From Octopus vulgaris (taxonomy: Eukaryota): 64,000 nucleotides of DNA. Below, in pieces: positions 26,020-55,325 of this stretch. Under the pieces are notes generated by a model, which searched no databases, had not been told where the DNA came from, and worked only from the letters and a program-made list of their open reading frames with translations. The DNA lies in assembly GCA_951406725.2 (NCBI GenBank), contig OX597822.1, forward strand, positions 19,654,001 through 19,718,000, given 5' to 3'. The position numbers and the translations under genes are program-made. Every line of letters starts with the position of its first letter. Position 1 is the stretch's first letter.

Positions 26020-27350
26020 TATATCATCATTTATCGTCCTTCTTCCATGCCATGCATACATGGATAGGATGGTTGACAGGAGGCAGCCAGGCAGAAAAAC
26101 CTGGCTACTGTGTCCGTTTTGCAGGGATTTTACAGCTGGATGCCCTTCCTAACACTAACCACTCTGCAGAGTGGACTCAGTGCTTTTTATGTGGCACTAG
26201 AACAGACGAGGTTAGTTTTGGCATGATTTTTACAGCTGGATGCCCTTCCAAACGCCAACCACATTAGTGTAGACTAGATGCTTTTAATGTGGCACCAGCA
26301 CTGGCAGGGTAACCAAGTAACTCACAAGAAATTATGAGAGGGGAACTTGTGTCAGAGGATGAAAGGTTAGAGTGTGACAAAAAGACAAAGAGACAGAAGC
26401 AGGTGTTTTGCCACAACAGAGGAGGCAGTAGATGAGGTGATCCAGTATCAAATGATAAAAGGTTAGAGTATAACAGAGAAATAGAAAAGCAGAAATAGGT
26501 GTCTTGCTATAGAGGAGGTACATGGTTACCCATAGAGAGAGAGGTATAAGAAAAAGGCCAGAAACAAGTGTGCTGATGTAAAGAAGATACTTGGTTACCT
26601 AGTCAGAGGGAAAATAAGAGAAGAAGGGAGAGTTGCAAATAACAACTTTAGTCTTAGCAAAGTTAACTTTAAGGCCCTTTGATTCCAAGTTTTGCTTCCA
26701 AATCTAGAAGTTCTTCTCCAATTCTGCTTCAGATTCTGTAAAAAGAGCAAGATCATCAGCATATAGTAGTTCCCATGGGCATCCAGTTTTGAATTTATCT
26801 GTTATGGCCTGGAGAACTATGATGAATAAGAGTGGACTAAGAACTGATCCCTGGTGTACTCCAACTTATATGTTAAATTCAAGGCCAACTCTCAGCTTAT
26901 TGACAGCATCGCTGTATTTGGCTTGAACTGTTTTAACTAACCACTTCTCTATTCCTAGCTTCCTTAGAGACCAACAAATAAGAGAGTGGGGAACCCTGTT
27001 AAAAGCTCTCTCCAGGTCGGCAAAGGCTAAGTACAATGGCTTACTTTTGGCCAAATACTTTCCTTGCAACTGTCTCACTATGAAGATGGCATCAGTGGTA
27101 CTTCTCCCAGGAACAAAACCAAACTGCATCTCATCTATAGAGCTATAACTCTCTCTGTAAATTTCATGACTAGGTCCAGCAGTTTGGTACCTCTGTAGTT
27201 GTTTCTATCTAAGGCATCACTTTTACCCCTGTAGCAGCTAACTATAAAACTACTATACCAGTCTTTGGGTATGATACCCTCCTGAATAACCTGATTGACT
27301 ATGCAAGTGACTAGGATGTATCTCACATCACCGAATATTTCAATCATCTC
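26020..27350 (-). pseudogene. Degenerate RTE LINE fragment (RT domain plus 3' UTR)
   Basis: ORFs 26866..27129 and 27135..27428 (YRGTKLL, QFGFVPGRST, FADLERAF) and LLYADD at ~26750 are homologous to the 37530..39428 ORF but carry stops. Confidence 0.88.
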
Positions 27351-28292
27351 ACTGTAGCGATGGTGGGAAGAGAGGAATTGCTCAGTGCCTAAAACATCGA
27401 GCAAAGAATATAAGTAGATACCCACCACAAAGAAATGATCAAGCTCAATAACAATCTACTAAGCAACAACTACCCCAAAAACATACTCTCCACTCCAATT
27501 ATGAAGAAAAAAGAGGATGAAACCAATAAACTGTCCACAGTCTGTCTACCCTATGTGAAAGGCCTCTCCGAAAAGATACAAAAGATATGCAGCCCATAGG
27601 ACATCAGGACAGTATTCAAGAATAATACAACACTTCATAAATATCTCATTCAGGTAAAACCACCAATAGAAGAGAATATGACCAAAGACTGCGTGTACTC
27701 CATCCCATGCAGCTGTGGTAGGTTATACAAAGGCAAAACATAGCATCCCCTCAAAATATGGGTAGAGGAACATCGCAAAGCTGTGACACAGGGAGATATT
27801 GATAAGTCGGGTATAGCTGATCAGGTATGGAAAAATGGAGACCACCTCCCCCTGTGGGATGAAGTTAAAATAATAGACAGAGAAGACCACTGGAAAATAT
27901 GAAGGCTAAAAGGAGCAGCCTATATACTAGGACACAACAACCTCCTAAGCAGACCGAGTGCAGATAGGAGTAGCATATAGGAACCGGTATTAAGAAAGGA
28001 TAGGAAAATATTAGATTTATAAGCCCTAAAAATTCACTCCATGGTCATATGACATAGTGGTTAAGAACGTGGGTTACTAACCCCCAAGATTCTGAGTTCG
28101 ATTCCAGGCAGTGACCTGAATAATAATAATAATAATAATAATAACATCAAAAAAGACCCTAGGAATGAGAACCCAGGTTTGAAATTTCCCCAAGTCACCT
28201 GAAGCCGAAACTTTGTGTTAACAACAAACAGGATGAGGATAAATATCCATCAAATAATGTACAAAGTTCCTCATCTCTTAAATATAGAACTG
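27350..28292 (+). mobile_element. Penelope-like element (Poseidon-type GIY-YIG endonuclease C-terminus) plus terminal repeat with a tRNA-like head
   Basis: Manual translation gives LPYVKGLSEKIQKIC...CVYSIPCSCGRLYKGKT*HPLKIWVEEHRKAV...KSGIADQVW...WDEVKIIDRE...RLK, with in-frame stops. It is followed at 28050-28290 by the terminal repeat. Confidence 0.85.
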
Positions 28293-29016
28293 TATTATAT
28301 AAGAGATGTTCATTTCTATTTTTCCATGACAAAGATGTCTGGTCATGGGGAAATATTATGTTGCTTGGAAACAGGTGAAGGTTTGTGACAGGAGGGGCAT
28401 CCAGCTGTAGAAAGATTGCTTCAACAAATTCTGTCTGACCCATGCAAGCCTAGAAAATTGGATGTTAAATGATGATGATGATGACAGTGGCCTTGCTGTT
28501 TCTAATTAATTCCATGTGTTTACTTATTTATCTATGTAGCTAGATAGATGGGGGTCTTTGACAGAAACAGTGTAGAAGGAGATTGAGGCATTTAATCTCC
28601 ACCAGAAGAATCAAAATAAACAATAATATAAAACAATAACACATACAGATGCACATACATACATTTATACATATGCACACACACACACATATACATACAT
28701 ACACACATACATACATACGTACATGCATGCACATACACATTGACCCACACACATGTGCACAAACAATCAAAAGGGAATGCAGTGTAAATGACAGACAGAG
28801 TCAAGACTACTGAAAAGGTTGCAAGACGCAATGAAAATTTTAGGAAAATAAAAATAAGAAATAAGTGGAAATTTTACCGGTGAGTGTGTTACATTATAAG
28901 GCACAAAAAGAAAATGACTCTCCCCAGACACAACAGAATATGCTTCAACACAAGAACTCATATAAAGAATCTTGCAAACCAAATCCAAAAATGAAAAACA
29001 GACATAGAAGACTTAC

Positions 29017-29123
29017 CTAAACCAGCATGACAATGGATGGCCACTTTCCCTTGTGTAAGAGCAAACTGCATTACTCGAACCATATCCAACAGCCTACTTT
29101 TTGACAAAGTGCCATAATCTTGA
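29017..29123 (-). CDS. PTPDC1: PTPDC1-like catalytic exon (QDYGTLSKSRLLDMVRVMQFALTQGKVAIHCHAGLG)
   Basis: tttatag/gtaagt boundaries; 107 nt, phase 2 to 1. Carries the HCxxGxG part of the CX5R motif. Confidence 0.96.
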
Positions 29124-29511
29124 CTATAAAAATATCAAAACATGATGCACATCACACTGACTTCATTTAGAAATTTATTTAATATTCTAACTATATTGTT
29201 ATATTTATTTGCCATTATTGCTTTGATCAACATATTGAAAAGCCATATTGCTTCAGAATGACTGCTTGTCTTCAAATATAATTACATAACAGTTAATTAT
29301 GTTTAACTTATTATAAATAAGTTAAATAGAATTATGCTAGTTAAAGATTATTAAGTATCAGCTAAATATATTTATATATCAGTAAAATGCAATTAAATAT
29401 CAGTTAAATACAATCATAAATCAGTGAAATATAATTATATATCAGTGAAATATAATTATATATCAATTAGATATAATTATATATTAATTAAATATAATTC
29501 TTACAACTTAC

Positions 29512-29533
29512 CAGGCAAAATTGTAGAAATAAA
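29512..29533 (-). CDS. PTPDC1: PTPDC1-like 22-nt microexon (IYFYNFAC)
   Basis: ttttatttcag|TTTATTTCTACAATTTTGCCTG|gtaagt. It supplies the otherwise missing IYFYNF motif and the needed phase 1 to 2 change. Confidence 0.9.
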
Positions 29534-31289
29534 CTGAAATAAAACAGAAATGCAATGTTGAAACTAAATCACAAATATACAAAATGTCGATCAAAGTAAA
29601 AACTGGATTGGATTGGATTGGAGTGGATTACCTATGTTTAGTCCACTGTAGGACAAAGGCCCCTGCATGTTCTATCCTCCAACCACAGTCTGATGTGGAG
29701 GCTATGAATTTGAGCTTGAGATCACACTGGTTTGATGAGCCTTCTCCGTCACCGTATGGGTATAGGTAAAAAAAAAACAAAAACTGCATCCCTCTGCCAA
29801 GTCACATCAAGCCAATGTGGCAGAATAGGCTCATCATATGAGTATGATCCCAAGTTCAAATTCACAGCCCCCATACCAGACTATGGTTGATAGAAAGAAC
29901 TTGCTGAGGTTTTTGTCTTGCAGTGGACTAAACATAGGCATTCCAATCAAGACAATAGCATAAACTGGATTATGGATTGTTAGCCATATATTAAGATATG
30001 CAAGAAGTATGAAGGCTTAAGTATGTAGAGTGTGTAATAGCAGTCAGATGAGTACAAAAATTGAAGTCCAGAAAATATATATCACAAACGGCTCTATTCT
30101 TAGTTCTCTAGTATTAATTTCATTGTTTAAGGAACTCTGAACCTCCTGTATAGTAAATTTTATTTTATTTTATTTTATCTAGTTTCAGCTCACGAGCTGT
30201 GGCCATGCTGGGGCACCGCCATTTAATGACATACTTTCTCATACTAGAATTTCTTCAAGAGTCTCAAAATAAACAGACTAAATGCAATGCTCTCTGAAGG
30301 TTATCAAGCCCCAAATTAAAGCATTAGTTTATAAGCAAATTCCCTTCGATCTGGATAATCAAGTTCTGTCAATATTGAGCCACTGAAAACTGCAGCTGAG
30401 GAAAATTCAAAACAAACTGCACCAGAAGTATCAAAAAGTTCAATTCAAGTTACAGTTGCATCATAAAACACCTTTATGAAGTAGCAAAAGTGCTTAAACT
30501 TGGCCAGTGGGTTCCATAGCCCCTGACTGTTTCTCAGCTTAACCCTTTAGCATTCAAATTAGCCATATCTATCCTAAATATTATATCTGTTTTATATTCC
30601 TGTGTAAAATTATAAAAATAATGACAAAAAGTGAGGAAAAGTGGGTTTTCTATAATCAATTTTTTTTATGTGCCCTTTTCAAGCCTGTGGCGTATGTATT
30701 CCTCCCAGCTGGACGGGACACCAGTCCATTGCAGCATTACTCAAGAAACAGGAAGGGATAGTGAGAGAAAGTTGGGGCGAAAGAGTACAACAGGGGTCGC
30801 CACCATCCCCTGCTGGACCCTCGTGGAGCTTTAGGTGTTTTCACTCAATAAACACACACAATGCTCGGTCTGGGAATTGAAACTGCGATCCTCCAACCAG
30901 GAGTCTGCTGCCCTAACCACTGGGACATTGCGCCTCCAAATCTATAATCTCTCTAAAATCATATTCAATGGAAACTATAATGGTTGGCATCATCATCATC
31001 ATCATTTACCGTCTGCTTTCCATGCTGGCATGGGTTGGACGGCTTGAAAGGAACTGGCCAGACCAGGGGCTGCACCAGGTACCATAGTCTGTTTTGGCTT
31101 GGTTTCCACGGCTGGATGCCCTTCTTAATGCCAACCACTTCACAGAGTGTACTGAGTGCTTTTTATGTGATACCAGCACCTGCACTAATGCTTTTTACAT
31201 GGCACCTTGGTTTTAGGATCTTCCACTGAAAACGGAGGATTCATCTCCAAATCAGGACTACACCCCACAGAAAAGAAAAAAAAAAAGAT

Positions 31290-31680
31290 ATGTGCTTAAT
31301 GGCATATGAAGGGTGTTGTCTACCATGAAGATTTAAACCAAAATGAAACACTTAATCTGAAGAAGTATTGTCATCAATTGGAAGGATCACATAAAAATTT
31401 GCAGAAGAAGCACCCATCACTGGCCAATCATAGAAGAGTGTTGCTCTAACATGCAAAACCACATATTGCCCAAGTCATTCAGGAAAAAATTATGGCACTA
31501 AATATGGAAGTTTTGCCTCATGGTCTTCACTTTTCTATCTTGCTTCATCTGATTATAATCGTTTCAGATCAGTGCCGCATTATTTAGGAGGAAAACAGTT
31601 TATTAATTGTGAAGAGATTAAAAATGATATTGAATGTCTCTCTGCTTGAAAGCCAGAAGAATTTTACACCTGATGGATCA
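31290..31680 (+). mobile_element. Mariner C-terminal fragment
   Basis: Degenerate GVVYHEDLN...EVLPH...LASSDYNRFRSV segment. Confidence 0.6.
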
Positions 31681-31883
31681 ATAATTTCATCCTTTCGGGG
31701 TCAATAAATTAAGTACCAGTTATGCACTGGGTCGATGTGATCGATTTAATCCATTTGTCTGTCCTTGTTTGTCCCCTATGTGTTTAGGCCCTTGTGGGTA
31801 GTAAAGAAATATAAAAATATCAATTATAACAAAGTATCATTTGATTGTTTCTCATGTAACAGAACTTTCTTTTTTAAATACAA

Positions 31884-32281
31884 CTAGCAGTATCGCCTGG
31901 CGTTGCTCGGATTTGTAAGGGAAATAACTATATAAGCATTTTTAGAGAGTTATAGCCAAAAAATAGCAAAAAAATGCATTAAAAATGGAAGAAAAATTAT
32001 GGTAAATTTTATTTTAAATCGTTGACTCATTGTAGACATTTTTAGAGAGTTACTTCCCTTATATAATAGCGAAAAAATGCATTAAAATGGAAAAAAACGA
32101 TGGTAAATTTTTTTTTAAATCGTAGACTCATCGTAGACGCGTGCTAATACGCAGAAGGGCTCGATATGAATCACGACTATAAGATACCCGGTTTTGGTTA
32201 AACTGCACCGCAAAATGTGGGAGTAGTTAGGAATCTAAATCGTAGGAGACAGACACACAACCTCTCTTTTATATATAAAGA
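31884..32281 (-). mobile_element. Non-autonomous Helitron
   Basis: 5' TCTTTATATATAAAAG ... 3' CTAG, between A and T, with a subterminal GC hairpin-like motif. Confidence 0.8.
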
Positions 32282-32289
32282 TATATATA

Positions 32290-34246
32290 CTAGCTGAAGG
32301 TGACCCGCTCTACGCGCAGGTAAGAGTGTGGTTGTTACTTTCTGTTATTTCCTTTCAGCACGTAAAAAGCACCATCCGAACGTGGCCGATTGCAGCGCCG
32401 CCTTGAGTGGCACGTAAAAAGCACCAACCGATCGTGGCCGCTGCCAGCCCACCTGGCACCTGTGCCGGCGGCACGAAAAAAGCACCCACTACACTCACAG
32501 AGTGGTTGGCGTTAGGAAGGACATCCACCTGTAGAAACACTGCCAGATCAGACTGGAGCCTGGTGCAGCCTCCTGGCTTCCCAGACCCCGGTCAAACTGT
32601 CCAACCCGTGCTAGCACGGAAAACGGACGTTAAACAATGATGATGATGATGATGATGATTCTCTCCTCCTTTCTCTCTCACTTTCCCCACTCTCTTACTC
32701 TTCCTTTCTCTCGGACTCTCCCTCACTTTCTCTTACTCTCTATCTTTATCTATCTCTCTCCCATTTATAAACAACAAAAGATCTTGAGTAAGTTGAGAAA
32801 TAAAATATTTACAAAGATCAATCATAAATATCAGGCAGTAACAATGGAAAGGTCTGCTTCAAGGCAGACAGCAAAACACTAACATTTAAAAGAGACAGAC
32901 GAACTTGCGAGCTGAATAAAAATAATAAAATATTGGAAACCAAAGTTTGAAGGGATAGAATCTGAGGATAGTAGAGTCACCATAGTTGGCATTTCTTAAC
33001 GACAGACAGCAACGTTTTGACAGTTTAACGGCTGGCGTAAAATTTTGAACTTGATGTAAAAGAAAATCCCTAAACACCAAGTTTTGAAGTGATTCTTTCT
33101 CACGACAGTAGACTCACCATGGCAAGCATTCAAAACTTCTTCATCATGGACGGCAACACATTGACGATAAAAAGGCTAGCGCAAATTTTTTAGCTTGATG
33201 TAACAGAGAATTCCTAAACACCCGCTCCTTTAAATTTTAATCCCCTTCCAGCCCCATTTAGACCCCTTTTCACATTTTGGTTAATATAACCCGATTTCAT
33301 TCGGGTCTACTGGGGCCACATTTTATAAGATGAAGAATTTTGTCATAGAGGTCACGCCTTTCATTTGAGGAAAAAAAATAGTTGTCATGCAAACTTGCCA
33401 GCACTTTTAACATAGGTCTGCATATTTTCAGCTCAACCGACCATATAATGCACACATTATATATGTATGTATATATGTGTGTGTGTGTGTTGGAGTCTCT
33501 CTCATACGTGAGCGTTGATGCTGAATTCGACTTTTAAGCAGGTAACCTTGTCTTTGCTGAAATAGTTGTGAGCTGCTGGAGTTATTTCTCTGACGGGTAA
33601 TAGGAATTTCCATATCCTCCGAGGAAACGAACTGTTGACCCAGACAATTAGAATTAATTTTAATAAAAGCATCAATTTAAGAAAAAATAATAAAGTAGTA
33701 AAAAATGAAAATTTAGCACCAAAATAAATGTTAAAATGTAATAGATACGAAAAACCTACGTTATCACCAGAACACGAACGCTCGTTGGTGTGTTCTGTTT
33801 GTATTTGCTCCATCAGCGCGTTGACAGGCAGACAATAGAATGTGATGGCGAGATTCATAATATTTGTTGTCATGATTGTGTGGTGTTTGTGGCGATGATA
33901 ATTCTCTCTATGAATGCAGACAGCGAGATATAGAATGCAGTTTGACGAAGTGAAAGTGAAGGGAAGGTAGGAAATAGAGTGAGTGAAAAAGTGCTGGGAA
34001 GGGAGGAAATAGCTTGAGTGAGTGAGGAAGACAGATACATTAAAGAATGGGAGTGGACTTGTCAAAGTGGGTTTTTGGCCCTAGCAACGACACCTTTTAA
34101 GATAGGGATTTCTAACATAGCCCACGGGCATCGTCACCTTATTTTACATGTCCCTGTAAATTTTGGAGTCAATCCGATGGGATGTAGTGGCCTTGTAAGC
34201 GATCCAAGTGGTCGAGTTAAACAAACTTTTTTTCAGTTTTATAAAT

Positions 34247-34249
<3 letters not shown>
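32290..34249 (-). mobile_element. Non-autonomous Helitron (~2 kb)
   Basis: 5' TCTATTTATAAAACTG ... acctgcgcgtagagcgggt hairpin ... CTAG 3'; inserted in (TA)n. Confidence 0.75.
32357..32659 (+). mobile_element. RTE LINE 3' UTR fragment nested in a Helitron
   Basis: Same terminus with a (GAT)n tail. Confidence 0.85.
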
Positions 34250-34286
<37 letters not shown>

Positions 34287-34310
34287 TTTACTTTAAGCAG
34301 CAGAAAATTC

Positions 34311-34362
34311 AACAAAATCTGTTACTCTGAGTTTCTCGTTGCCGTTCATCAGACAGTTTTTG
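34311..34362 (-). ncRNA. Putative minimal type I hammerhead ribozyme (inverted twin; sense in the PTPDC1 pre-mRNA)
   Basis: Reverse complement of 35953-36004. Confidence 0.65.
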
Positions 34363-35952
34363 CTAGAATGGAACTTATATATTAATTCAATCTATACTCT
34401 TACAAACGCTACACCTTTAAAAAGAAATGGACTTGTTTGATTGGCCCTTTAGAAAAAACGGTCAATCTTCGAGCGATAAACAAAAAGGTCAAAAATATAT
34501 GTATATATATATAAAAAAACTTATAAAAATTATAAAATCCGAGGAAAAAACCGAGGAAAAAACCTATTGCCGTTAATGAAGACAGTGCAAATTAATGCAT
34601 AGAAATTAAACCTGTTATAAATACTGCAATACATATTTATATTAAAATCTACATATATATATCAACATACACAAAAGGATGCGCGTAAACGCCATACATA
34701 CATATACAGACGTATGAATATGAATCTAAATATACACATAAAAGCATGTGTACATATATTCACGCAAACCGTCTCGCACGCAAGCTAAAATTCATCTATG
34801 TAGCAATTCTCATATACTGAGCAAGGAGGGGGAACGAAAGAAAGGGAAAGAGAGAAAAAGGAACGAAGGAGGGGTGGGGAAAAAACTTGTAACGATGTTA
34901 TTGGCATCTATAGAGGCCAGTATACATACACAAGTTTGAATGGATACATATACATATAAATAATGGATACATATAAATAATCGACGAATTTTGATTCTGT
35001 TTCCAAGCTACGCGGATATTAATCCGTATAGCAAAGTCTTATGTTTCTACATATATATTAGGAAAAACCTACAATCTTTGTTTTCATGTTATTGTATTGC
35101 ATAGGATTACCTTGATTATTTATATTACCTTGATTATTTATAAATGACCCAAAATAGGATGTTATATTTTATTTTATATGTCTTTCGTATATATTTTTAT
35201 TAATGCACCCATTTTTTAAAAGCAATGTTTTTTTTAAAAAAAGCAATGTTGTCAAAATTAGAATGTTTATATAAGTATGTGTATAGCAAAGCATATGTAT
35301 TTGTAAGCATGCGTATCTGTGTATGTGTAAGTGAAAGTATGCTTGTGCTTAAGCACACATATACACGACGGTATGTATATGTATCCATTCAAACTTGTGT
35401 ATGTATACTGGCCTCTATAGATGCCAATAACATCGTTACAAGTTTTTTCCCCACCCCTCCTTCGTTCCTTTTTCTCTCTTTCCCTTTCTTTCGTTCCCCC
35501 TCCTTGCTCAGTATATGAGAATTGCTACATAGATGAATTTTAGCTTGCGTGCGAGACGGTTTGCGTGAATATATGTACACATGCTTTTATGTGTATATTT
35601 AGATTCATATTCATACGTCTGTATATGTATGTATGGCGTTTACGCGCATCCTTTTGTGTATGTTGATATATATATGTAGATTTTAATATAAATATGTATT
35701 GCAGTATTTATAACAGGTTTAATTTCTATGCATTAATTTGCACTGTCTTCATTAACGGCAATAGGTTTTTTCCTCGGATTTTATAATTTTTATAAGTTTT
35801 TTTATATATATATACATATATTTTTGACCTTTTTGTTTATCGCTCGAAGATTGACCGTTTTTTCTAAAGGGCCAATCAAACAAGTCCATTTCTTTTTAAA
35901 GGTGTAGCGTTTGTAAGAGTATAGATTGAATTAATATATAAGTTCCATTCTA

Positions 35953-36004
35953 GCAAAAACTGTCTGATGAACGGCAACGAGAAACTCAGAGTAACAGATT
36001 TTGT
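35953..36004 (+). ncRNA. Putative minimal type I hammerhead ribozyme
   Basis: gcaaaaactgt-CTGATGA-a cg GCAA cg a-GAAA-CTCaGAG-TA-acagattttgt. Shows conserved core, GNRA-capped stem II, short stem III and a GUA triplet; stem I is ctgt/acag and extendable. Confidence 0.65.
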
Positions 36005-36100
36005 TGAATTTTCTGCTGCTTAAAATAAAGCATATTACTCTACCACTGGTATTTGAGTACTCTTTTTTCCACCTTGTTTCACATTTATGTGTTTACTCCG

Positions 36101-36152
<52 letters not shown>

Positions 36153-36156
<4 letters not shown>

Positions 36157-39100
36157 TCATCATTTAGCGTCCGTTCTCCATGCTAGCATGGGTTGGACGG
36201 TTCAACTGGGGTCTGTGAAGCTGGAAGGCTTCATCAGGCCCTTCAGATCTGGCAGTGTTTCTACGGCTGGATGCCCTTCCTAACGCCAACCACTCCGTGA
36301 GTGTAGTGGGTGCTTTTTACGTGCCACCCGCACAGGTGCCAGACAGAGCTGGCAAACGGCCACGAACGGATGGTGCTTTTACGTGTCACCGGCACGGGGC
36401 CAGGCGAGGCTGGCAACGGACATGAACGGATGGTGCTATACGTGCCACCAACACGGGGGCCAGACAGAGCTGGCAAACGGCCACGAAACGGATGGTGCTT
36501 TTACGTGTTACCGGCACGGGGGCCAGGCGAGGCTGGCAACGGACACGAACGGATGGTGCTTTTACATGTCACCGACATGGGGGCCAGACAGGGCTGGCAA
36601 ACGGCCACGAACGGATGGTGCTTTTACGTGTCACCGGCACGGGGGCCAGACAGAGCTGGCAAACGGCCACGAACGGATGGTGCTTTTACGTGTCACTGGC
36701 ACGGGGGCCAGACAGAGCTGGCAAACGGCCACAAACGGATGGTGCTTTTACGTGTCACCGGCACGGGGGCCAGGCCAGGCTGGCAACGAACACGAACGGA
36801 TGGTGCTTTTACGTGCCACCGACACAGGGGCCAGACAGGGCTGGCAAACGGCTATGAACGGATGGTGCTTTTACGTGTCACCTGCACGGGGGCCCTGATG
36901 TTGATCGACCTCAATTTGGTTTGATCTTGATTTTGACTGTTCTCACTGGTCTTGCCGGGGTTTCTCACGCACAGCATACTTCCAAAGGTCTCGGTCACTG
37001 GTCATTTCCTTGGTGAGACCTAAAATTCGAAGGTCGTGCTTCACCGCCTCGACCCAGGTTTTCCTGGGTCTACCTCTTCCACAGGTCCCCTCAACTGCCA
37101 GGGTGTGGCACTTTCGCACACAACTATCTTCAGCCATTCTCATCACATGACCATACCAGCGCATACGTCTCTCTTGCACACAACAACTGATGCTTCTTAG
37201 GTTCAACTTTTCTCTCAAGGTACTTACACTCTGTCGATTATGAACACTGACGTTACACATCCATCGGAGCATACTAGCTTCATTTCTTGCGAGCTTATGC
37301 AAATCCTCAGCAGTCACAGCCCAAGTTTCACTACCATGTAGCATGGCTGTACGTACACATGCATCATACAGTCTGCCTTTTACTTTGAGCGAGAGGCCTT
37401 TTGTCACCAGCAGGGGTTAGAGCTCTCTAAACTTTGCCCAGGCTATTCTTACTCTAGTAGTTATACTTTCAGCGCACCCGCCCCCGCTACTGACTTGGTC
37501 ACCTAGGTAATGGAAACTATCAACTACTTCTAGCTTTTCTCCCTGGAAAGTGACGAAGTTGGTCTCAGAGCATTTTCAGTGTTAATTGTTCCTGAGCATC
37601 TGCCACATACAAAAACCATCTTCCTAGTTAGCCTTCCTTTGACATTGCTGCACCTCTTATGTGTCCATAGCTTACACTTGGTGCATCTTATAGAGTTTCT
37701 ACCTACACCTTTTCTACAGATCAAGCAGGGCCATCTACCTGAAGGCGTTTGTGATTGGTCTACCTTCCTACTTATTAGGACTTTGGTTTTGGCTAGGTTG
37801 ATTCTAAGGCCCTTCGATTCTAAACCTTGTTTCCATACCTGAAACTTCTCCTCTAGTTCTGATAGAGACTCAGCAATTAGAGCAAGGTCATCAGCATAGA
37901 GGAGCTCCCAGGGGCATCCTGTCTTGAATTCCTCCGTTATTGCCTGGAGGACTATGATAAATAGGAGGGGACTGAGGACTGAACCTTGGTGGACCCCAAC
38001 CTCTACCCTGAATTCTTCACTGTACTCGGTGCCAACCCTCACCTTACTAGCAGCGTCTCTGTACATGGCTTGTACAGCTTTCACTAACCATTCATCTATC
38101 CCTAGTTTCCTCATTGACCACCAGATGAGGGATCGGGGGACCCTGTCGAAGGCTTTCTCCATATCAACAAAAGCCAGGTATAGGGGCTTGTCTTTGGCTA
38201 GGTATTTCTCTTGCAGCTGTCTTACCATGAAAATAGCATCAGTAGTACTTTTCCCTGGCACGAACCCAAACTGCATCTGATCTAGGCTAACTCTCTCTCT
38301 AATTAGTTGGGCTATAACCCTCTCCGTAACCTTCATTACCTGATCCAGCAGCTTGATACCCCTGTAGTTATTTGTATCTAGGGCGTCACCTTTACCTTTG
38401 TAGCAGCTGACTATTATGCTGCTACACCAGTCATTGGGAATGACTCCTTCGTGTATCACCTGGTTAACTATACGGGTGACTAGGCTATAGCCTACACTAC
38501 CAGATATTTTGAGCATCTCTGCAGTAATTCCTGATGGGCCTGGGGCTTTCCCTGTTTTCATGCTTTTAATTTCCTTATCTACTAAGGAACTGTCAACTCG
38601 GATTGCTGGTCCCTCTGTTGGGTCAACATTCGGCAGACTCTCTTTATCCCATTCATTTTCCTCATTCAGCAACCTTTCATAGTGGCTTCTCCAAACCTCT
38701 CTCTTTGCATCCTCATTTAGCGCAAGTGAGCCGTCATCCATGCGAACACATTTTTCTCCTACCACGTCACGATTCTCTCTCACACACTGTCTTGCTATAC
38801 AAAATACCTCAAGTCTTTCATCCTCACGGCACAGGACATTGGCAAATTTTTTCCTATCTGCTTCCCCTCTGGCTAAATAAACCTGCCTCCTAGCTTCCCT
38901 TCTTGCAGTCTGATACACTTCCCTGCTACCACCGTTCTTCCAGTCCTTCCAAGCCTGTTTCTTTTGTCTAATAGCCCTGTCAACAGTATTGTTCCACCAC
39001 CACGTTATTTTGGGTCTTGTGGGGACTTTGCACCAGCCACAGATCTGGTCAGTGGCTTTCAGCAGGTTGTCCCTTAGAAGCGCCCAGTTATCTTCTACCC

Positions 39101-39309: not shown

Positions 39310-39357
39310 ATATATATGTATATATATATATCATCATCATCATCATCATTTAACGTC

Positions 39358-44716: not shown

Positions 44717-44720
44717 GTTA

Positions 44721-45088: not shown

Positions 45089-45761
45089 TTACTATTATTA
45101 TTATACTTGTGAGAACACATGGCCTAGTGGTTAGGATGTTGCACTCACGATTGTGGTTTCAATTCCTAGACAATTCCTGGTGTGTTGCGTTCTTGAGTAA
45201 AACACTTCATCTCATGTCACTTTGCGATCACTCGACACGTGGTACACCAAGCACCTGTTCGGGCAATGTCGATAGTGTGAGCTACAGTACATAAATTCAA
45301 TTGCTATAAACAAATCTTTTGTGCAGGTCGTTCCACAAAAGCTGAACACTCACACATTGTCTTCGACGGGAGAGTTCATTATTATGCTAGAAATTGAATG
45401 GACTGAGTTTAATCAATCCATCCATCTTTTCTGTCTACTAACCCAGGGAGGGTTGTGGGGACAGAGACCTCAGGCACCTTCTTGATAAGGTCCTCTCAGA
45501 AGCCACCATTATCACACTTTCCAATTCCCAATCACTAACAGTTGTTCCCTCCTGGACTTGATTAGGGGTACGGAGAGACACTCATCCATTGTGCTCCCAC
45601 CCAACACCTTCCCCAAGTTGCAGGCTTATTGCAATATATTTTCCAAACAGATTCCTCTTCTAGGACAATCAAATTACACAAGAAAAAAAAACCTATTATG
45701 AACATGATGTACTAAACTAGATAAAAATTTAAATACAGGAATTCCACAGAGAGAAAGTTAC

Positions 45762-45924
45762 CAATGAGAAAAGAGTCCGGTGATAGCCATTTGGCCTTCC
45801 CAGCAGTCACTGCGATCATATTTACAATTGCGGCCACCACAAAACAAAGCACATTGGTTCTTTAACGAAATCAAGCCCTGAGCCTGTTCTGTCAGGACAC
45901 TATATTGAGGATTAGGAATGCTGG
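45762..45924 (-). CDS. PTPDC1: PTPDC1-like exon (SIPNPQYSVLTEQAQGLISLKNQCALFCGGRNCKYDRSDCWEGQMAITGLFSHW)
   Basis: tttcag acceptor and gtaact donor; 163 nt, phase 1 to 2. CGGRxCKY...W...AIxGxxSxW matches the PTPDC1 N-terminal block as I recall it. Confidence 0.92.
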
Positions 45925-48687
45925 CTGAAATGATAAAATAATATTGATGATAATCATGAGGAGTCCATTAAAAACAGTTAAAATATGACATGTAAATTAA
46001 TGTATTTATACAGATCACATTAACCATTAACAAATATCTATTCATTCTTAACACATTCTGGCAGATTCAAATGTAACTATCTGATCACTTTTGTTTTTTA
46101 ATCAATGGAAAACATCACCTCCTTTTAGATGACATGTTCAAAACCATACAGTTCACTGGTGTGAGGGGACTTTGAAACACTAGTGTTTCAACCTTATTGT
46201 ATGTCTCATCAGTCAAAGTTATTCTGTCAGACAGATGAATCAGACAAAATGCATGAGCTTTTGTTTATAGGGATCAGCAAGTTATTTGCTGATGTGAGCT
46301 GATTTCTACTAAACAGATAATAAATGCATGCAGAACACTGAGGATCAAAATAATGATATACCTATATATTCTTAATTCTGGCAGATTTGAACATGAATAT
46401 CCTGATCTCTGTTGTATTTAGTCTTCAGAGAATATCTCTCTTTAGACGATGTGTGTTCATAACATGAATGAAGAGACACACCATAAGGTCAAAATAACCG
46501 TGTCTCAAAGTAAAAAATTCCCTTATGTCAATGAATTGTGTGTGTGTTGATGCATAACACACATTGTTTGGAGGAAGGAGATATTCTCCAATGACAAAGA
46601 GCAACAGCAATCAGCATATTTATGTTTGAATTGTATTAAAAAGGAACAGATACATTCTCATTTAGATTCTTGATGTTCTGCATACACCTCATGAATTATT
46701 ATGGTCTGGCAGACATCAGCGTATAATTTGTTTGCAGCTTGCTATAAACAAGAGCCACTACTCCCATTTAGATTCACTGATTCAGGGATAGCGTTGACAG
46801 AAAAGACACAATAAGGTTGAAATGCCTCAAACTCAAAATTCCCTTACACCAACGAACCATGTCTATCCATGTTGTCATAAGGGAGCAGATTATTCTTCAA
46901 TGGCAAAATGTAACAGTGATCAGCGGATTCACAAATGAATCTGCCAGAATGTTTTGAGAGTGATAAATAAGTTATCATTTAGATCACCCATGTTGTGTTC
47001 AACACCCCAGACCCTGTACTAATCACTATTCCCATTCCTTCCTTCCTTCTCTAGAACATCATCCTTCTGAAATCTCCTCTTTGTTCCCTACAGGGGTCAA
47101 CTTGTAACTGTTTAAATTGAACATTAATACAATCTGTCTCACAAGTTGAGGAAGAACTTCAAAAGTCATGGGCACTGTCCCCCAAGTAACTTGCAAAACA
47201 CCACAAATTATTATCTGTCGGGCAAACATTAGTACACATCAGCAAATAATTTATTTGATGATTTCTGTTAACAACAGCCAGTACTCTTGTTAGTTTCACT
47301 GATCTAGGGGTAGCTTTGACTGGGAAGACACACAATACGGTTGAAACACTATATTGTCTCATCTGAAGACCAGAGATGTTCGCTAAAGACAAAATACAAT
47401 AGTGATCAGCATATTCATGTTTGAGTCTCTCAAAATGTGTTCAAAATGAATAGATACATCATTGTTTAGACTCTCACTGTTTTACGTAGATCTCCTGAAT
47501 TCTAATTTATAATCGTATGGAAGGGACATAAGCATTCACCAATTAAATCTATTTAATGGCGCTGCCAACCACACAATAGGTGAAATAGATAAAACAACCG
47601 AATGATAGCATAATTTGCAGTAAACCATCTGGTTGCCGTTTTTGAAGGATTCATCTATTCATGGGTTATTGAGTGTTAGTCAATACCATAGGCTCCTGTA
47701 CTTGGCTTGTACTTTATTTTATCAACCCTGGAAGGTTGAGCGGAAACAAACATAGCAAGGCTTTTTCGTGATGCTCCAATGATTCTGCTAGATAGAAATT
47801 CTTTGATTTTGCAAAGTTCACTTTATATTAGCTTAAAATGGAGCCAAATCCTTAATTTATTGTCAAAACATTGGATGTGATATCTACAATAGTATCAACA
47901 TGTCATATAACCATATCTTTATTGTTTCACTTTGGAATACAAAGGACATGGAATTATAGAATTGTTCTCTCTTTTCCAAAACTTCCTAAAGGAAAGCTAG
48001 ATTATAAGACAGTTCATCTGACAAGCTAATGACACTCGAATCTTTGCCTTCTTTTGTCACCCCTTTGTTATGGGTTGGTGACAGGAAGGGTATCCAGCCA
48101 TAGAAAAATATATCTCAACAAATTCTGACTGATCCATGCAAACATGGAAAAGTGGACATTAAAACTATAATGATGATGATGAAATGAAAATATTATCTTT
48201 ATAATATATATCGAAATAATTTAAGTTGATATTTAAAAAGATATATTTATATATATTATATATATTAAAAATGTTATTTTTATAATATACATCTTTATAT
48301 TATCTTTATTAACATGTCTTTATAATATATTGGTTTCAAATTTTGGCACAAGGACAGAAAGTTCGGGGGAGGAGGTAAGTCAATTACATCGATCTCAGTG
48401 TTCAACTGGTACATATTTTATTGACCCCGAAAGGATGAAAGCAAAGTCGACCTTGGCAGAATTTGAACTCAGAAAGTAAGAACAGATGAAATGCCACTGA
48501 GCATTTTGCCTGGTGTGCTAATGATTCTACTAGTATATTATTTATCTTTATAATATATATCAAAATGTAAACTTCATGACAGATCTTTTTGATTCAACAT
48601 GAAATGTTACCAAAATTTCACAATTAAAATTTAAATATTAGAGTAAGAAATAAAAAAACTGCAAAAAAGCAAGAAAATGTTATATAC

Positions 48688-48763
48688 CCTCTACAGCCTC
48701 ATTGGACTCCCAGAGAAAAATATCATCTTTTTCACTATGTCCTTCGTCCAGTTCGGAATTCAT
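48688..48763 (-). CDS. PTPDC1: PTPDC1-like, probable first coding exon (MNSELDEGHSEKDDIFLWESNEAVE, ends phase 1)
   Basis: ATG at 48763 sits 7 nt after a pyrimidine-rich AG acceptor (48772-48771). Donor GTATAT. The phase-1 end joins the next exon in frame. This part is not conserved, so support is weaker. Confidence 0.6.
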
Positions 48764-49164
48764 TTCAATACTTAAAGAAGAAAAAATAGAAAGAAATGTA
48801 AAACACAGACTTATTAATTAATTCCATGTTCTCTTTTTGTCATATTGTCTCTTAAAATCCTCTCATGGCTTAGAATGAACTTTTCTGTAACTCTACATTG
48901 ATAACTCTAAATATGGTTGTGTTGGACTAATAACAGGCTTTTTTTAAAACTCAGTATGTTTGGTTGGTTTCAATAGTAACACAAAAAAATCTGATAAAAA
49001 ATAACAGGCAAAAAAACCAGCAATAATATTTCTGGCCCTCTTTGCTGTTACTAGGAATATTACCACCTAGAGACTGTGGTAGTTATGTCTTAGTGATGTA
49101 AACAACAACACAACAGAATTCACTTTAAAGAGTAACATAAATAATTAATCAAAGTGAATAAGAG

Positions 49165-49238
<74 letters not shown>

Positions 49239-49600
49239 TAGGATTGTATACAACTGAATCTCATGCTTAAAGATTATATAACAACAACAGATCATGTTTG
49301 AACACATTCTTACATCATTATCAATTAACATCTGTCTTCTGGCATAGATTGGTTGGTTTGAAAGGATCTGATAAATGAGAGCTCCAGTTTCTCTGCTTTG
49401 GCATGTTTTTCTTTTATGGTTCAATGCCCTTCTTCACACCAACCACTTTACTGAAAGTATTGAGTGCTTTTTTCATGCCACTGGCACAAGTGAAGTTACC
49501 AAGTAACTTGCAAAACAAGACAACAACCTTTGAGCTGAGTGGGGTTGTAATAGAGAGCGAGATGGCTTTATGCCAGGCGTTGAGAGGTTAAAGTTTGATA

Positions 49601-50240
49601 CGAGCGTCAGCTGAAAAGTTCATAGGCTGACCAAAATTCTCTCATATATAATGTGACCAAATGAGGTTTAATTTTTCAACATAGTCTCCCTTGCAACGAA
49701 CACACTTCTTCCATCAGTGTTGCAGTGCTTGGATCCCATTGGTGAAGATGCTTCCATCATGTTGATCAAAAAAGCCATATGACATCATCATGACTGTGAT
49801 ACTGGTTACCAGCCAAGTGTTTTTTCATTTTGAGGAACAGATGATAGTAAGATGGGGCCAAATCAGGAGAATCTGGAGGTTGATCAACTAGTTCAAAGCC
49901 ATAGCCATGCACGGAAGCCATGGGAACCAGAGAATTGTCTGCTGGTCCATTGTCCTGATGAAACCCCTTTTGTCAATTTTCCTGGGCATTTGATCTTCAT
50001 AGCCTTTCGCAACTGCCTCAGCAAGTTGACATAGTACTCTCTACTGATGGTGAGGCCTTTTTGAAGATAGTCAATAAACACAATGCCATCTGCATCCCAA
50101 AAAACCGAGGCCATTGCCTTCTCTGAAGATGAAACAACCTCGGCCTTCTTTGGAGCAGGTGAAGAAGGATATTTCCACAGCATGGATTGTTTCTTTGTCT
50201 CTGGCTCAAAGTGATGAACCCAATACTCATGGTTACCCCA
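49601..50240 (-). mobile_element. Mariner 3' fragment (same family as 58056)
   Basis: ORF 49893..50294 has WVHHFEPETKKQS and ASVFWDADG. Matching TIR at 49601. Confidence 0.85.
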
Positions 50241-51149
50241 GCTAAAAAGAGAGAAAAGAGATGGTAGTGATGAGGCATCAGGGCATACACCCAAAGTATA
50301 AGAATGTGAAAATGAGAGCGGATACAGACAGAGGATTGAAAGTGGTGGGTGAGTAGATAAGTTTGTGAGAGTATGAAAGGAATGTGGTTAGAGATGCAGT
50401 TCTAAGATCAAGTTCTTACTGTCAGGAACACAATCGAGTATACTATCCTAAAATAAAATTTGCAGTCATTACTCAGTGTAACAGAATTATTTTTTTTTTG
50501 TCTTTGGTCAGTAAAGTGTTATTTTCTATTTGTTTCTATCAAGAAATCAAAGGAAATGACCACTATTCCCTTCAAACTTTGTTTTTGTGACCTGGACATC
50601 AATGTTTTGAAACTGACCCATTTTCCATTACATTTCAGACAGATTCAGCACTGAGTTGCTGAAGTACAATTTTCTAGTACTTTCTAGAAGTTTCAAGAAT
50701 GGCAGTATAAACACATGGATCATAAGCTCAACAGTTCAGTTTACTTCTAGCTGTCCAAGTGGAGACATGTGTTAGGAAAGCAAAGCTTGAAGGAAATATC
50801 AGCCATTTTTTATGCTTTCTAAGGATAAGCAAATAGGAAATAACAGTCGCTACCCAAGGACAAAAATCATATTACACAGTGTTATCTGTTAGATTACAAT
50901 AAATGTGCTTGCAACTCAATGGAGATCCTTTAGCCATTAAAAACTAAACTAATATGACAGGTTGTTTAAAAGGGAGAATATGATAAATTCATGGATATGG
51001 TGAGTAGCCCTTTCATTAGTTTATTTTCTTTTACTATTTTACATCAATTCTTTTTTAAATGAGTATGATATATTTATTAGAATAAATTGTTTTCCCATCT
51101 GGATGACAGAGGTCGGAATTCAACTTGCTGTTATTTGTGCAAAATATGG

Positions 51150-51410
51150 ATATCATCATTATCGTTTAGCGTCCGCTTTCCATGCTGGCATGGGTTGGAC
51201 GGTGCAACTGGGGTCTGGGAAGCCAGACGGCTGCACCAGACCCAGTCTGATCTGGCAGTGTTTCTACAGCTGGATGCCCTTCCTAACGTCAACCACTCCA
51301 TGAGTGTAGTGGGTGCTTTTTACGTGCCACCAGCACAGGTGCCAGACGAGGCTGGCAAACGGCCACGATCGGATGGTGCTTTTTACGTGCCACTGGCACA
51401 GAATCCAGTT
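51150..51410 (-). mobile_element. RTE LINE 3' UTR fragment
   Basis: Same terminus plus ~1.5 minisatellite units. Older copies lie at ~1560-1735, 8560-8840, 15750-15960, 30990-31210 and 49320-49500. Confidence 0.8.
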
Positions 51411-52134
51411 GGATATGACTATATTTCTTTATTTATTGCTTTCACTGTATTGATGTTTTCATAATTATTCTTATATAATTTAATAATTATGCTCACATCT
51501 AAGGTAGTGAGCTGGTAGAATTGTTAGCACACTGGACAAAATGCTTATTGGCATTTTGTCCGTCTTTATGTTCTGAGTTCAAATTCTAAGGAGTTCAACC
51601 CTGCCTTTCATCTTTCCAGGGTCAATAAAATAAGTATCATTTCATCACTGGGGTTAATTTAATTGATTTACTCCCTCAAACGAAATTGTTGGCCTTGTAC
51701 CAAAATTTGAAACCAATACTTACACTCATCAAGAAAACACCTTTCCACTCCACTCCCTACATATGAGTCCTCATAGTTACTCCAGATGGTAGGCCTGGTT
51801 ATCACCAAAGACCTTTCCTGGAGAAAGCACATCCTTAACATAATTAGGACTACATTCCAATGACTGACCCTTCTCTTCAAGGTCAGACAATAATTCAGTA
51901 CTTAATGATTGCTGACACAATGGAATGTTATTCCAATATTTGGGATAATGCTGCTATTATTGGACACACATGTCCAGGAAAGGATCGCTCAACTAACTGA
52001 TATAAAATTACTCACAGACAAGCGCCAGGCTCCTGACCCCACTTTTACCACAATATCCTTAAGCCACAAAGAGAGACTCACTCACATTTTCTCTCAGACT
52101 GATTTTTAGAAGACAACCTATTAAAATATAATCA

Positions 52135-52294
52135 AGGCATAAGAGTGGCTATGTGGTAAGTAGCTTGCTTACCAACCACATGGTTCCGGGTTCAGTCCCA
52201 CAGCGTGGTACCTTGGGCAAGTGTCTTCTACTATAGCCTTGGGCCAACCAAAGCCTTGTGATTTGGTAGACGGAAACTGAAAGAAGCCCATCAC

Positions 52295-52326
<32 letters not shown>

Positions 52327-52525
52327 ATGTGTTTGTCCCACTAACATCGTTTGACAACTGAAGCTGGTGTGTTTATGTCTCTGTAACTAAGCGGTTTGGC
52401 AAAAGAGACCGATAGAATAAGTACTAGGCTTACAAAGTCCAGAATAAGTCCTGGGGTCGATTTGCTCAACTAAAGGCAGTGCTCCAGCAATGGCCACAGT
52501 CAAATGACTGAAACAAGTAAAAGAG
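52135..52525 (+). mobile_element. tRNA/CORE-like SINE; copies at 3655-4045, 42620-43170 and 53540-53975
   Basis: tRNA-like head ggttccgggttcagtccca, ccttgggcaagtgtcttctactatagcc core, internal (TA)n, tail gtcaaatgactgaaacaag. Confidence 0.8.
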
Positions 52526-53741
52526 TACTTTCTATGACTGACATAGTTTATTTACATAATGATCCAAAACTGAGATTGGTGGCCTGACAATTTTTTTTGT
52601 TTTTCATTACTTGTTGGATTTTGAAGTTCTTCCTAAACTTGTGAGACAGATTGTATTAATGTTCAACTTAAATGTTACAAGTTGACCCCTGTAAGGAACA
52701 AAGAGGAGATTTCTAGAGAAGGAAGGAAGGAATGGGAATAGTGATTAGTACAGGGTCTGGGGTGTTGGACACAACATGGGTGATGAGAGGTGACAAGACA
52801 AGTGGATCAGGGATGCCTGAGTGGAGGTAGTACAAAAACTATTAAAGAGCAGAGGTCATTACAGTATTGATAGAAATGGCAATAAGAGGAAAGAAGATAG
52901 AGATGGTGGGGGTGAGATGCCAGAGCAAACTAAAGTTAAATAGTGAGTTCATATATTTATTTTTTCATGCAAAGTAAAGCAAAAGCAGAACTATGTCTTG
53001 CTGACTTGTGTGGTAAAATGGCAATGCTGGACTAATGTAAATGAAGTAATCCAGCATCTTAATCTTAAAGCCAGGATGATTCCTGCAATATCATCAAGTA
53101 ATTACATCAACATAATCAAAATCAGATAATTAGTAGTCTTGTTCTAATATTAGAAATTAATTAATGTTCAGGTTGAGATCATTCAAAGAATATTGACACA
53201 AGGAAAGAAGGAGAAAAAGAGCAAGGGTTTTTCATATAGTGTGTTGTCTATGTTAAAGCTAAGTTTTAAATATACAAATATATATCTTTGATCTTTATCT
53301 TTTAGCTTTTACTTGTTTCAGCCATTGGCAAGGGGTGCTTGTTTGTTTATGTCCCTGTAACTTAGTAGTATTTCAGCAAAAGAGGCCGATAGAATAAGTA
53401 CCAGGCTTAAAAGAAAAAAAAATAAAGACTGGGGTTGATTAGTTCAACTAAACTGTTTGGGGCAGTGTTCTAGCATGACCACAGTCCAACAATTAAAACA
53501 AAGGGTAACAGATGAAAAATATATAACAATCTTTTACTTCTTTCAATCATTTGACTGTGGCCATGATGGGGCACTACTTTTAACGGTTTTAAAGCCTAGT
53601 ACTTATTCTATCCATCTCTTTTGCTGAACCACTAAGTTACAGGAACGTAAACAAACCAACACTGGTTGTCAAGCAGTGGTGGGAAACAAACACAGACCAC
53701 AAAGACATACACGCATAGATATATGTATGTGTGTGTGTATG

Positions 53742-53801
<60 letters not shown>

Positions 53802-54428
53802 CATACATATATGATGAACTTCTTTCAGTTTTCCCTCTACCAAATCCATGCACAAGGCTTTGGTCAGCCTAAGGCTATAGTAGAAGACACTTGCCCAAGG
53901 TTTCACGCAGCTGGACTGAACCTGGAACCATGTGGTTGGGAAGCACAAGCTTCTTACCACACAACCATGCCTGCGGTTACAAATGTTGTGAGAACTATAC
54001 AACTGTATACAGTTAAAGAAACGGATAACGCTCAAGATTTGACCTGTAAGGTGTCCAAAACCAGTGAAACTGATACAGTTAATATTGTACTGAAATCAGT
54101 GGAAGCTGACAGGATATGTGCAGAGGGGGAATTCAAGAGAGCTGATGTACTGGGAGGAAAAGGAAAGGACTTAGCTTTGTGATAAGAGTGGGGCCAGGAG
54201 GTGGTGGTTAAACATAATATGGTGATAAAAGGAGAATCAAGTGGATTAAGGATATATGGATAGTACTGATCTCATGCTGAGCAGAAATAGCTAGGGATCA
54301 GTCAACACTAATTGATAATAGAACTGATAATAGAAAAGGCAGAGAGATTAGCTGGGTTGTTTGTGGGTCAGAGTGGATGTGTTGGTGTATGACTTTATAA
54401 CAATCAGTCAGGTCATGTCTCAGGATAT

Positions 54429-54467
<39 letters not shown>

Positions 54468-54792
54468 GTGTGTGTGTGTGTGTGTGTGCATGCTTGTGTG
54501 TGTAATGTCCCAGATGGGGGAGTTGTATTGCAATGAGTTTTCTGGAGAGTATTTTCTGGCCTTGAATAGAAGAGCCCCATTTTTAAAGATGTTGTCTTTG
54601 CTATGTTAGACCTTTAGCTGGTTATATCAGGCCCAAATATTCTACATGTTTTATGTTCAACCCAAATTCGGCCTCTCACACTTACCATAAAATGTCATAC
54701 TAAAAATATACTATGACATCATTGAAATCTAGAAACAGCAAGATAGTGCATAATTCAAACCAATTTGAATAAATAGGCATTATGCTTCATTA

Positions 54793-55325
54793 TTTACATT
54801 ATTACATTCGACGAATATTTGTCCTCATCTTGTTTGTTGTTAACACAACATTTCAGCTGATATACCCTCCAGCCTTCTTCAGGTGTCTTGGGAAAATTTC
54901 GAACCTGGGTTCTCATTCCTAAGGTATTTTTCTATGTTGTTATTATTATTATTATTATTGTTCAGGTCACTGCTTGGAATTGAACTCAGAATCTTGGGGT
55001 TAGTAGCCCATGCTCCTAACCACTATGCCATATACCCTTGCTCTTTTTTGCCTTCTTTTCTTGAGTCAATATTCTTTGGCATAGTGGTTAAGAGCACCCA
55101 AGATTACAAGTTCAATTCCATGCAGTGACTTGAACAATAATAATAATAATAATAACATCGAAAATACCTTAGGTATGAGAACCCAGGCTCGAAATTTTCC
55201 CAAGACACCTGAAGAAGGCTGGAGGGTATATCAGCTGAAACGTTGTGTTAACAACAAACAAGATGAGGACAAATATCCGTCGAATGTAAATAATGTACAT
55301 AATTCCTCATCTCTTAAATATAGAA
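54793..55325. mobile_element. Head-to-head inverted pair of the tRNA-head/hammerhead terminal repeat also seen at 28050-28290
   Basis: 54793-55035 is the reverse complement of 55076-55298. A-box TGGCATAGTGG, B-box-like GTTCAATTCC, (AAT)n, then the hammerhead. The right arm has a ~27-nt extension. Confidence 0.85.
55204..55249 (+). ncRNA. Putative minimal type I hammerhead ribozyme
   Basis: gacac-CTGAAGA-a-ggctgg agggtata tcagct-GAAA-CG-TT-gtgtt. Stem I is gacac/gtgtt, stem II is 6 bp, stem III is palindromic ACGT, and the triplet is GUU. Confidence 0.7.

Follow-up and report, generated by a model that had tools for sequence, protein, structure and literature searches.

Within a 64,000-nt stretch of the Octopus vulgaris genome (assembly GCA_951406725.2, contig OX597822.1, positions 19,654,001 to 19,718,000 of the forward strand; hereafter the window), a short module joins a transfer RNA (tRNA)-like head, with the A and B boxes of an RNA polymerase III (Pol III) promoter, to a hammerhead ribozyme, which raises the question of what the module belongs to and how its RNA is started. 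The original prediction for this locus had offered two readings, namely the terminal repeat (pLTR) of a Penelope-like element (PLE) driven by Pol III, or a short interspersed element (SINE) or retrozyme family mobilised by a PLE. Herein we assign the module, as its pLTR, to a single autonomous PLE of the Poseidon type, whose tRNA-derived head would moderately probably act as an internal Pol III promoter.

A tRNA-headed terminal repeat and its parent element

A scan of the whole window identified three copies of the module and none beyond these: copy A, which follows a GIY-YIG-type coding remnant (together 27368-28289), and the two arms of a head-to-head pair (54789-55325), exactly where they had been predicted (Table 1). 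The motifs listed in the original prediction are real, yet composite, as no single window copy has all of them intact. Copy A has the B box GTTCGATTCC and an A box with one change, and its hammerhead has lost core G8-A9 and stem II to a 20-nt deletion, of which the loss of stem II had been noted in the original prediction; both arms of the pair have the A box TGGCATAGTGG and a CpG-decayed B box, and stem III of the minus arm reads TG, not CG. The open reading frame (ORF) remnant of copy A contains several internal stops, is 89.5% identical to the ORF of the near-full-length copy L182 and shares 68% identity with protein P0001 over 47 aa.

Two loci (L182 and L181) carry this remnant on into a full ORF encoding a reverse transcriptase (RT) and GIY-YIG, and the unit is ordered as head, (AAT)n run, ATG, hammerhead, tail, RT-GIY-YIG ORF, a 29-nt untranslated region (UTR) and a second head. 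A majority yardstick drawn from 76 fragments has one 784-codon open frame after the tail, and the module ATG (equivalent to 55175) reads in frame through the hammerhead into the ORF in L199, L196, L192 and L205, so that the full ORF of ~830 codons comprises this frame plus ~50 codons within the pLTR. Since the ATG of the module is in frame with the RT-GIY-YIG ORF of a PLE, the module is the pLTR of that element. The 9-nt repeat of the tail varies in steps of 9, which was not counted as coding evidence because slippage yields the same pattern.

At the protein level, RVT_1 matched L181 (E 1.8e-8), weak TERT matches were obtained (E 0.053), and protein homologues of the element are 52-68% identical, with P0001-P0004 (57-68%) as the closest relatives. 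At its C-terminal end, the ORF contains CVY-x-IPCSC-xx-Y-x-G and two later His residues, which we take to be a GIY-YIG signature; Pfam GIY-YIG gave no score on the family copies or on P0001, and on the relative P0008 (33% identical) it gave a match at the corresponding place that is below the cut-off (E 0.0098). In the alignment, a Zn-finger-like motif is absent from the linker between RT and endonuclease, and a second PLE family (L274, see below) has a Cys-rich linker. A linker lacking this motif fits the Penelope/Poseidon clade according to the clade feature in PMC8557442. Judged by these sequence features, the parent is an autonomous Poseidon-type PLE with an RT and a putative GIY-YIG domain.

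The tRNA-headed structure of the pLTR is solid. In 29 of 30 loci selected by the ORF 3' end, the ORF is followed by the head, as it is in most protein-selected loci that extend that far, which bears out the predicted pLTR uniting a tRNA-like A/B-box head with a minimal type I hammerhead and excludes a head that is tied to the ORF in the window copy only. Upstream of the ORF start it was found in 4 of 30 loci selected by the ORF 5' end, the remainder being truncated inside the body or the ORF, and two of these four (L188 and L192) have tandem junctions in the order ORF 3' end, head, body, ORF 5' end. The body follows all 30 heads selected by similarity and 26 of 30 taken in order of position, where three of the four body-less heads end within (AAT)n and one just past it. 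When the natural head of L383 was compared with 27 distinct genomic tRNAs (six isotypes), the best match was tRNA-Arg (48/74 identical, z 6.3). The A box starts at head position +8 and the B box lies at tRNA (Pol III) spacing from it, with a B-box pattern in 21 of 30 heads that had been selected by their A box. The octopus SINEs OR1 and OR2 are tRNA-Arg-derived. In related loci, no tRNA head was recognised near the hammerhead by a pattern scan of all 80, or by ARAGORN among the matches listed, and an A/B-box candidate at the ORF end of L295 and L296 was rejected as a head, being coding sequence.

All copies carry a three-codon mini-frame, ATG-GCG-TAG, at head positions +6 to +14 and thus upstream of the main ATG, which becomes relevant if a Pol III RNA is translated. 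In L360, L375 and L388 the head ends in an (AAT)n run with no body, and the ORF copy L181 (7880-7960) jumps from head +5 into (AAT)n.

The majority bases of the hammerhead fit the core CUGANGA/GAAA/NUH with stems I and II and a palindromic stem III, specifically a 5-bp stem I, an extra A, 5-6 bp in stem II, CG as stem III and the GUU site. This pattern is intact in 62 of 113 arms, and the sole common non-CpG variant of the core falls at the free position N7 (79 T and 25 A of 109). The minimum-energy fold of 55200-55256 consists of exactly stems I and II with the core and GUU unpaired (-11.1 kcal/mol), and is no more stable than shuffles (z -0.34). Relatives have the same layout with different stem II sequences (3-9 bp) and a stem I of 2-7 bp where scorable. 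The proposed scoring of both parts was unproductive, as Rfam scored neither tRNA nor hammerhead in the window or in L371, and the cut placed by the original prediction after 55244 is at the correct position for the predicted site. By its sequence the motif is a minimal PLE hammerhead, situated within coding sequence 70 nt past the ATG. Such hammerheads cleave poorly in vitro, and only as a dimer (PMC4209133), and cleavage is possible with protein help (PMC11167929); the octopus motif would likewise cut only in these ways. Lying on opposite strands, the head-to-head arms cannot form a dimer in cis; a dimer could be supplied by tandem units or by two RNA molecules.

Table 1 Features of the three module copies and their surroundings in the window.
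Feature	Position	Strand	Details
ORF end, 5'-truncated and decayed	27368..28022	+	RT thumb/linker and GIY-YIG region; stop 28020-28022
3' UTR, stop to head	28023..28042	+	29 nt in most copies, shorter in copy A
tRNA-like head, copy A	28043..28117	+	A box 28050-28060, B box 28096-28105
(AAT)n run, copy A	28118..28143	+	length varies among copies
pLTR body and tail, copy A	28144..28289	+	ATG at 28165; hammerhead disrupted
Left target-site duplication	54779..54787	+	9 bp
Inverted arm, body without tail	54789..54937	-	ends at about body position 150; hammerhead core 54882-54876
(AAT)n run, inverted arm	54938..54963	-	from sequence
tRNA-like head, inverted arm	54964..55037	-	complete to +1
Spacer between arms	55038..55076	.	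stretch 55037-55077 is an inverted match to 53185-53226 (37/41)
tRNA-like head, forward arm	55077..55134	+	begins at head +8; 13 nt of anticodon arm deleted
(AAT)n run, forward arm	55135..55154	+	from sequence
pLTR body, forward arm	55155..55325	+	ATG 55175; hammerhead 55204-55249; tail ~55299-55325
Right target-site duplication	55330..55338	+	9 bp

Copies, insertion marks and the pile-up of 5' ends

Exact genomic matches to the 27-nt tail number 5165, against none for its reversed control, so the module is not a chance assembly; corrected for decay (a rough rate from 15/34 sites), tail copies number ~12,000. The copies are neutrally decayed daughters of few masters, and the bodies of 71 position-ordered copies average 94% identity to a majority-like natural copy. 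Among 90 position-ordered loci anchored on the tail, 69 have an inverted arm, 65 a head and 76 neither ORF nor UTR sequence; most copies are solo or inverted, with only a few short direct repeats. In 57 pairs, the inverted arms have outer ends at body position 144 (13) or 150 (17), and the forward arms at 172. Target duplications are 9-14 bp long, reaching at least 8 bp in 35 of the 57 pairs (1.8 in a swapped-flank control) and at least 10 bp in 24 (0.15 in the control). The pair in the window conforms to this, with the final 22-28 nt on the forward arm only and a flanking 9-bp duplication ATTATGCTT; its spacer was probably templated, to judge by the match, from host DNA 1.6 kb upstream in a jump during insertion. 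Inverted pairs, duplications and an optional tail form the insertion signature of PLEs (PMC8557442, PMC3846280), and the free inverted pairs, one-arm tail and target duplications of the octopus family are normal Penelope insertion marks.

A variant of the head and the N7 variant of the hammerhead are linked (P 6e-10), which defines two subfamilies, and the A and B boxes are retained in both. Each subfamily occurs ORF-attached as well as free (Fisher P 0.17 and 0.06; 50 and 105 arms), which does not support a separate SINE family. The suggestion of a SINE or retrozyme family partnered with a PLE is accordingly not upheld: what occurs free is the pLTR of the element itself, including the start codon of its ORF.

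In PAc, the Poseidon element of Anolis carolinensis (Frangieh et al. 2024, PMC11167929), RT starts at two internal sites, which the two outer ends of the octopus copies (144/150 and 172) match. When reverse transcription begins internally, close to the ORF start, a short copy represents the 5' part of the element RNA, and its 5' end marks either the end of that RNA or a stop of the RT. If the head drives transcription, genomic copies in their thousands would thus display the RNA 5' end, with a bearing on the origin of the head-to-head inversions of PLEs.

Exact genome counts of 638, 791, 3293 and 5742 were obtained at -123, -39, +2 and +54 relative to the head (~1600, 1700, 11,000 and 22,000 when corrected for match rate), amounting to a genome-wide step of ~6-7-fold at the first base of the head. 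Upstream UTR is present on only 5 of 30 position-ordered intact heads. Forty forward arms reach the head, of which 29 end at +1 to +19, 4 deeper in the head and 7 continue upstream, ending between -46 and -578. When arms were compared with a majority-like natural head (n = 77), 35 ended at -3 to +3 (17 at -3) and 12 at +4 to +12, in a count that omits arms whose head match stops before position 60 and hence drops about six UTR-bearing arms. Of the 25 heads without UTR, 13 retain no more than 2 bases upstream. The modal end lies ~10 nt before the A box. A start-to-A-box spacing of ~10 nt is usual in SINE and tRNA promoters.

How the RNA of the element may be started

Many copies stop exactly at the head, which makes it likely that the RNA was started by tRNA-gene machinery and not by an ordinary promoter. 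Our preferred reading, held with somewhat more confidence than doubt, is that the built-in tRNA-derived head would be an internal Pol III promoter that sets the RNA 5' end at about -3 to +1. The search for a more usual promoter points the same way, as a TATA-like box 25-55 nt before the hammerhead core is present in 0 of 41 arms of the tRNA-headed family and the gap from stop codon to head is only 29 nt. By eye, a TATA-like box was seen ~35-45 nt before the core in six related loci (L280, L281, L285, L303, L318 and L359), and one is present in rotifer Pen2a (PMC3846280). The Pol III terminator-like run TTTT is absent from the 2386-nt ORF region of the yardstick, where 2.7 (P 0.036), 4.1 or 4.9 (P 0.004) would be expected, and the single T-run site of the body is T3 in 88 of 101 arms and T4 in 6. 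For comparison, ORFs of long interspersed elements, in 4 groups drawn from 30 loci, contain 1.7-5.3 TTTT per kb, and each open frame of the second PLE family contains 6-27.

By analogy with PAc, the protein would bind the element RNA and nick AT-rich DNA, whereupon reverse transcription would begin at two internal sites near the ORF start and run back to the RNA 5' end. There, a short palindrome at about -7 to +5 would allow fold-back or switching of the cDNA, from which solo copies of ~250 bp and head-to-head pairs would result, and rarer priming at the downstream repeat of a tandem RNA would give ORF-bearing copies such as 27368-28289. The (AAT)n run is similar to the ATT target that PAc prefers and, on that analogy, may be a hot spot for nicking or switching. 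Two sources of the protein are conceivable, one being a Pol III read-through RNA that is free of T4, the other tandem or host transcripts that Pol II reads through. We regard it as rather unlikely that the element is transcribed end to end by Pol III, with its Pol II promoter swapped for a tRNA-type one. In that case a 2.7-kb, TTTT-free, uncapped RNA with a hammerhead in its first codons would be both template and message, and a 250-bp terminal repeat would be SINE and LTR at once.

A number of results weigh against the picture of an autonomous element with a Pol III start. No intact young copy was found, the longest stop-free frame among the family matches being 569 aa. ARAGORN identified no tRNA in the window and, at its default threshold, in none of 30 heads; the head was not scored as a tRNA by Rfam, and no cloverleaf fold was predicted for it. 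Many relatives (e.g., L283, L290, L316 and L326) also have no TATA-like box, and Penelope of D. virilis has a TATA-less internal promoter (PMC2377424). The relatives' T-runs were compared in 52 of 80 metagenome loci, with longer matches chosen, and five headless groups with at most 24% T had 6 TTTT runs against 8.8 expected, with none in the ORF of the headless L281; GGGG is absent from the yardstick too (0 versus 1.1 expected). The TTTT signal is weak because some relatives are TTTT-poor as well, and we have downgraded it as proof of Pol III. When three raw public RNA-seq runs and one contig set were mapped (strandedness of the libraries not known), reads were equal in both directions and followed the copy profile, with no pile-up at the start or the cut site; a step of 2.7-3.8-fold and the genomic fold-back junction appeared in the three runs. 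Because the two directions are equal, these reads are an echo of genomic copies in host transcripts and not evidence that the element is transcribed on its own. Lastly, a 10-bp hairpin is predicted across -14 to +10, coincident with the pile-up, and many copy ends are fold-backs, so that structure alone could produce the step.

This predicted hairpin at the head junction is the main rival to a Pol III start. It enters an explanation in which the head is a fixed passenger, acquired by the master copy in a single capture of a tRNA or monomeric SINE, the RNA is due to read-through by Pol II or to a cryptic start of that polymerase, and copies stop at the head through RT stalling or fold-back at the hairpin or through an RNase P-like cut. 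Fold-back junctions are indeed common and recur in the RNA reads (411, 309 and 324 loose ends), the last bases of the UTR are able to pair with head +1 to +10, rotifer PLEs are known to have palindromes where their pLTRs begin (PMC3846280), known PLE promoters are of Pol II type (PMC2377424, PMC8557442), and (AAT)n looks like a SINE tail, in which 3 of 30 heads end. Yet the ends cluster at -3 to +3 and not near +10, where the hairpin has its 3' foot, which, together with the UTR-free heads that keep so few upstream bases, the empty TATA interval, the short stop-to-head gap and the A and B boxes kept in both subfamilies, leads us to consider a passenger head unlikely, albeit with a real chance of being correct.

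We judge it improbable that the short unit of head, hammerhead and tail is a non-autonomous, SINE-like family with sources of its own, made by Pol III and mobilised by Penelope in trans. The preponderance of loci lacking ORF or UTR sequence (76 of 90), the promoter boxes of short copies with an intact head, their T3 (88) and T4 (6) runs among 101 arms, and the somewhat greater share of the N7=A subfamily among free arms (31/77 versus 5/27, P 0.06) would suit such a family; against it, the unit is identical to the pLTR, head included, and contains the start of the ORF, ORF-attached arms occur in both subfamilies, free copies show no diagnostic change at three sites tested, and PAc insertion needs RNA past the tail (the first 172 nt of the ORF), which short copies lack (PMC11167929). 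That the head is an unrelated SINE inserted by chance beside one ORF remnant, for which the (AAT)n run and nothing else speaks, is next to impossible and is refuted by the recurrence of the same junction at the ORF end in 29 of 30 loci and of the body behind the head in 56 of 60 head-selected loci.

Neighbouring repeats and comparison with known systems

The interval directly upstream of the ORF remnant, 26640-27350, codes for RT on the minus strand and belongs to a different non-LTR element, which is RTE-like on visual inspection. A young long-inverted-repeat element occupies 34281-36035, with arms of ~680 bp that are 99-100% complementary and TTAA at both ends, and from these features it has the appearance of a non-autonomous DNA transposon. 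Units of 52, 61 and 62 bp form tandem arrays at 4927-5394, 10412-11517, 13801-14280 and 36431-36854, some of these arrays within a dispersed repeat family. The second PLE family (L273-L276) is very young, with copies that are 99% identical, direct repeats of 1.1-1.6 kb and a pyrimidine-rich ORF; its linker is Cys-rich as in Neptune, it has a hammerhead-like motif with U at core position 3, and no tRNA head was seen in it.

To our knowledge, SINE-type Pol III heads have been thought restricted to short passengers that encode no protein. Annotated by an automated pipeline, the octopus element would probably come out as two pieces, a SINE and a fragment of Penelope. An octopus repeat annotation from 2026 includes Penelope and SINE families and, in the parts cited here, gives no detail of this kind (PMC13282606), and no PLE with a tRNA-derived head was found in the literature, a search to which Repbase, Dfam and the supplements of PMC13282606, any of which may hold a consensus, were external.

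The closest likeness is to PAc and rotifer Pen2a_Av (PMC11167929, PMC3846280), which share with the octopus element a single ORF of ~830-840 codons for RT with GIY-YIG (putative in the octopus) at its C-terminal end, an ORF start inside the pLTR that is overlapped by the hammerhead, two outer ends that define the tail, an inverted 5'-truncated partner, 9-14-bp duplications and partial tandems. Unlike these, the octopus pLTR starts with a tRNA-derived A/B-box head and (AAT)n, lacks a TATA-like box at the usual distance, follows the stop codon after 29 nt and has a sharp 5' pile-up. In architecture its hammerhead is no different from the minimal type I motifs found in metazoan PLEs (Cervera and de la Pena 2014, PMC4209133), sharing the 5-bp stem I, the extra unpaired nucleotide before stem II, the two-base palindromic stem III and the conserved core.

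Short hammerhead repeats offer a second comparison. The schistosome SMalpha/Sjalpha repeats also place a Pol III-type promoter beside a hammerhead, but are non-coding tandem repeats with canonical hammerheads, whereas the octopus has a minimal hammerhead in the coding start of an autonomous PLE (PMC6765202). Animal non-LTR retrozymes are likewise pLTR-related short hammerhead units moved by PLE proteins, and form head-to-tail arrays, in contrast to the solo or head-to-head octopus copies with their tRNA head; in the parts of the two sources cited, Pol III is not mentioned for them (PMC7229834; bioRxiv 10.64898/2026.07.22.740005).

A Pol III promoter derived from a small RNA and residing inside a terminal repeat is finally known from the TRIMp3 elements Cassandra, Helenus and Ajax (Kojima 2024, PMC10886601), for which an origin by SINE insertion into the repeat has been proposed. 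TRIMp3 are non-autonomous LTR elements of 0.3-1.3 kb, and autonomous partners of such small-RNA-headed repeats have been argued to need Pol II (PMC10886601), whereas the octopus head sits in the repeat of a protein-coding PLE itself. If the head does drive transcription, a mechanism that can be put to the test, the octopus element would be a natural test of whether Pol III can supply the message of a retrotransposon, and would offer a concrete route by which a PLE spawns SINE-like units.

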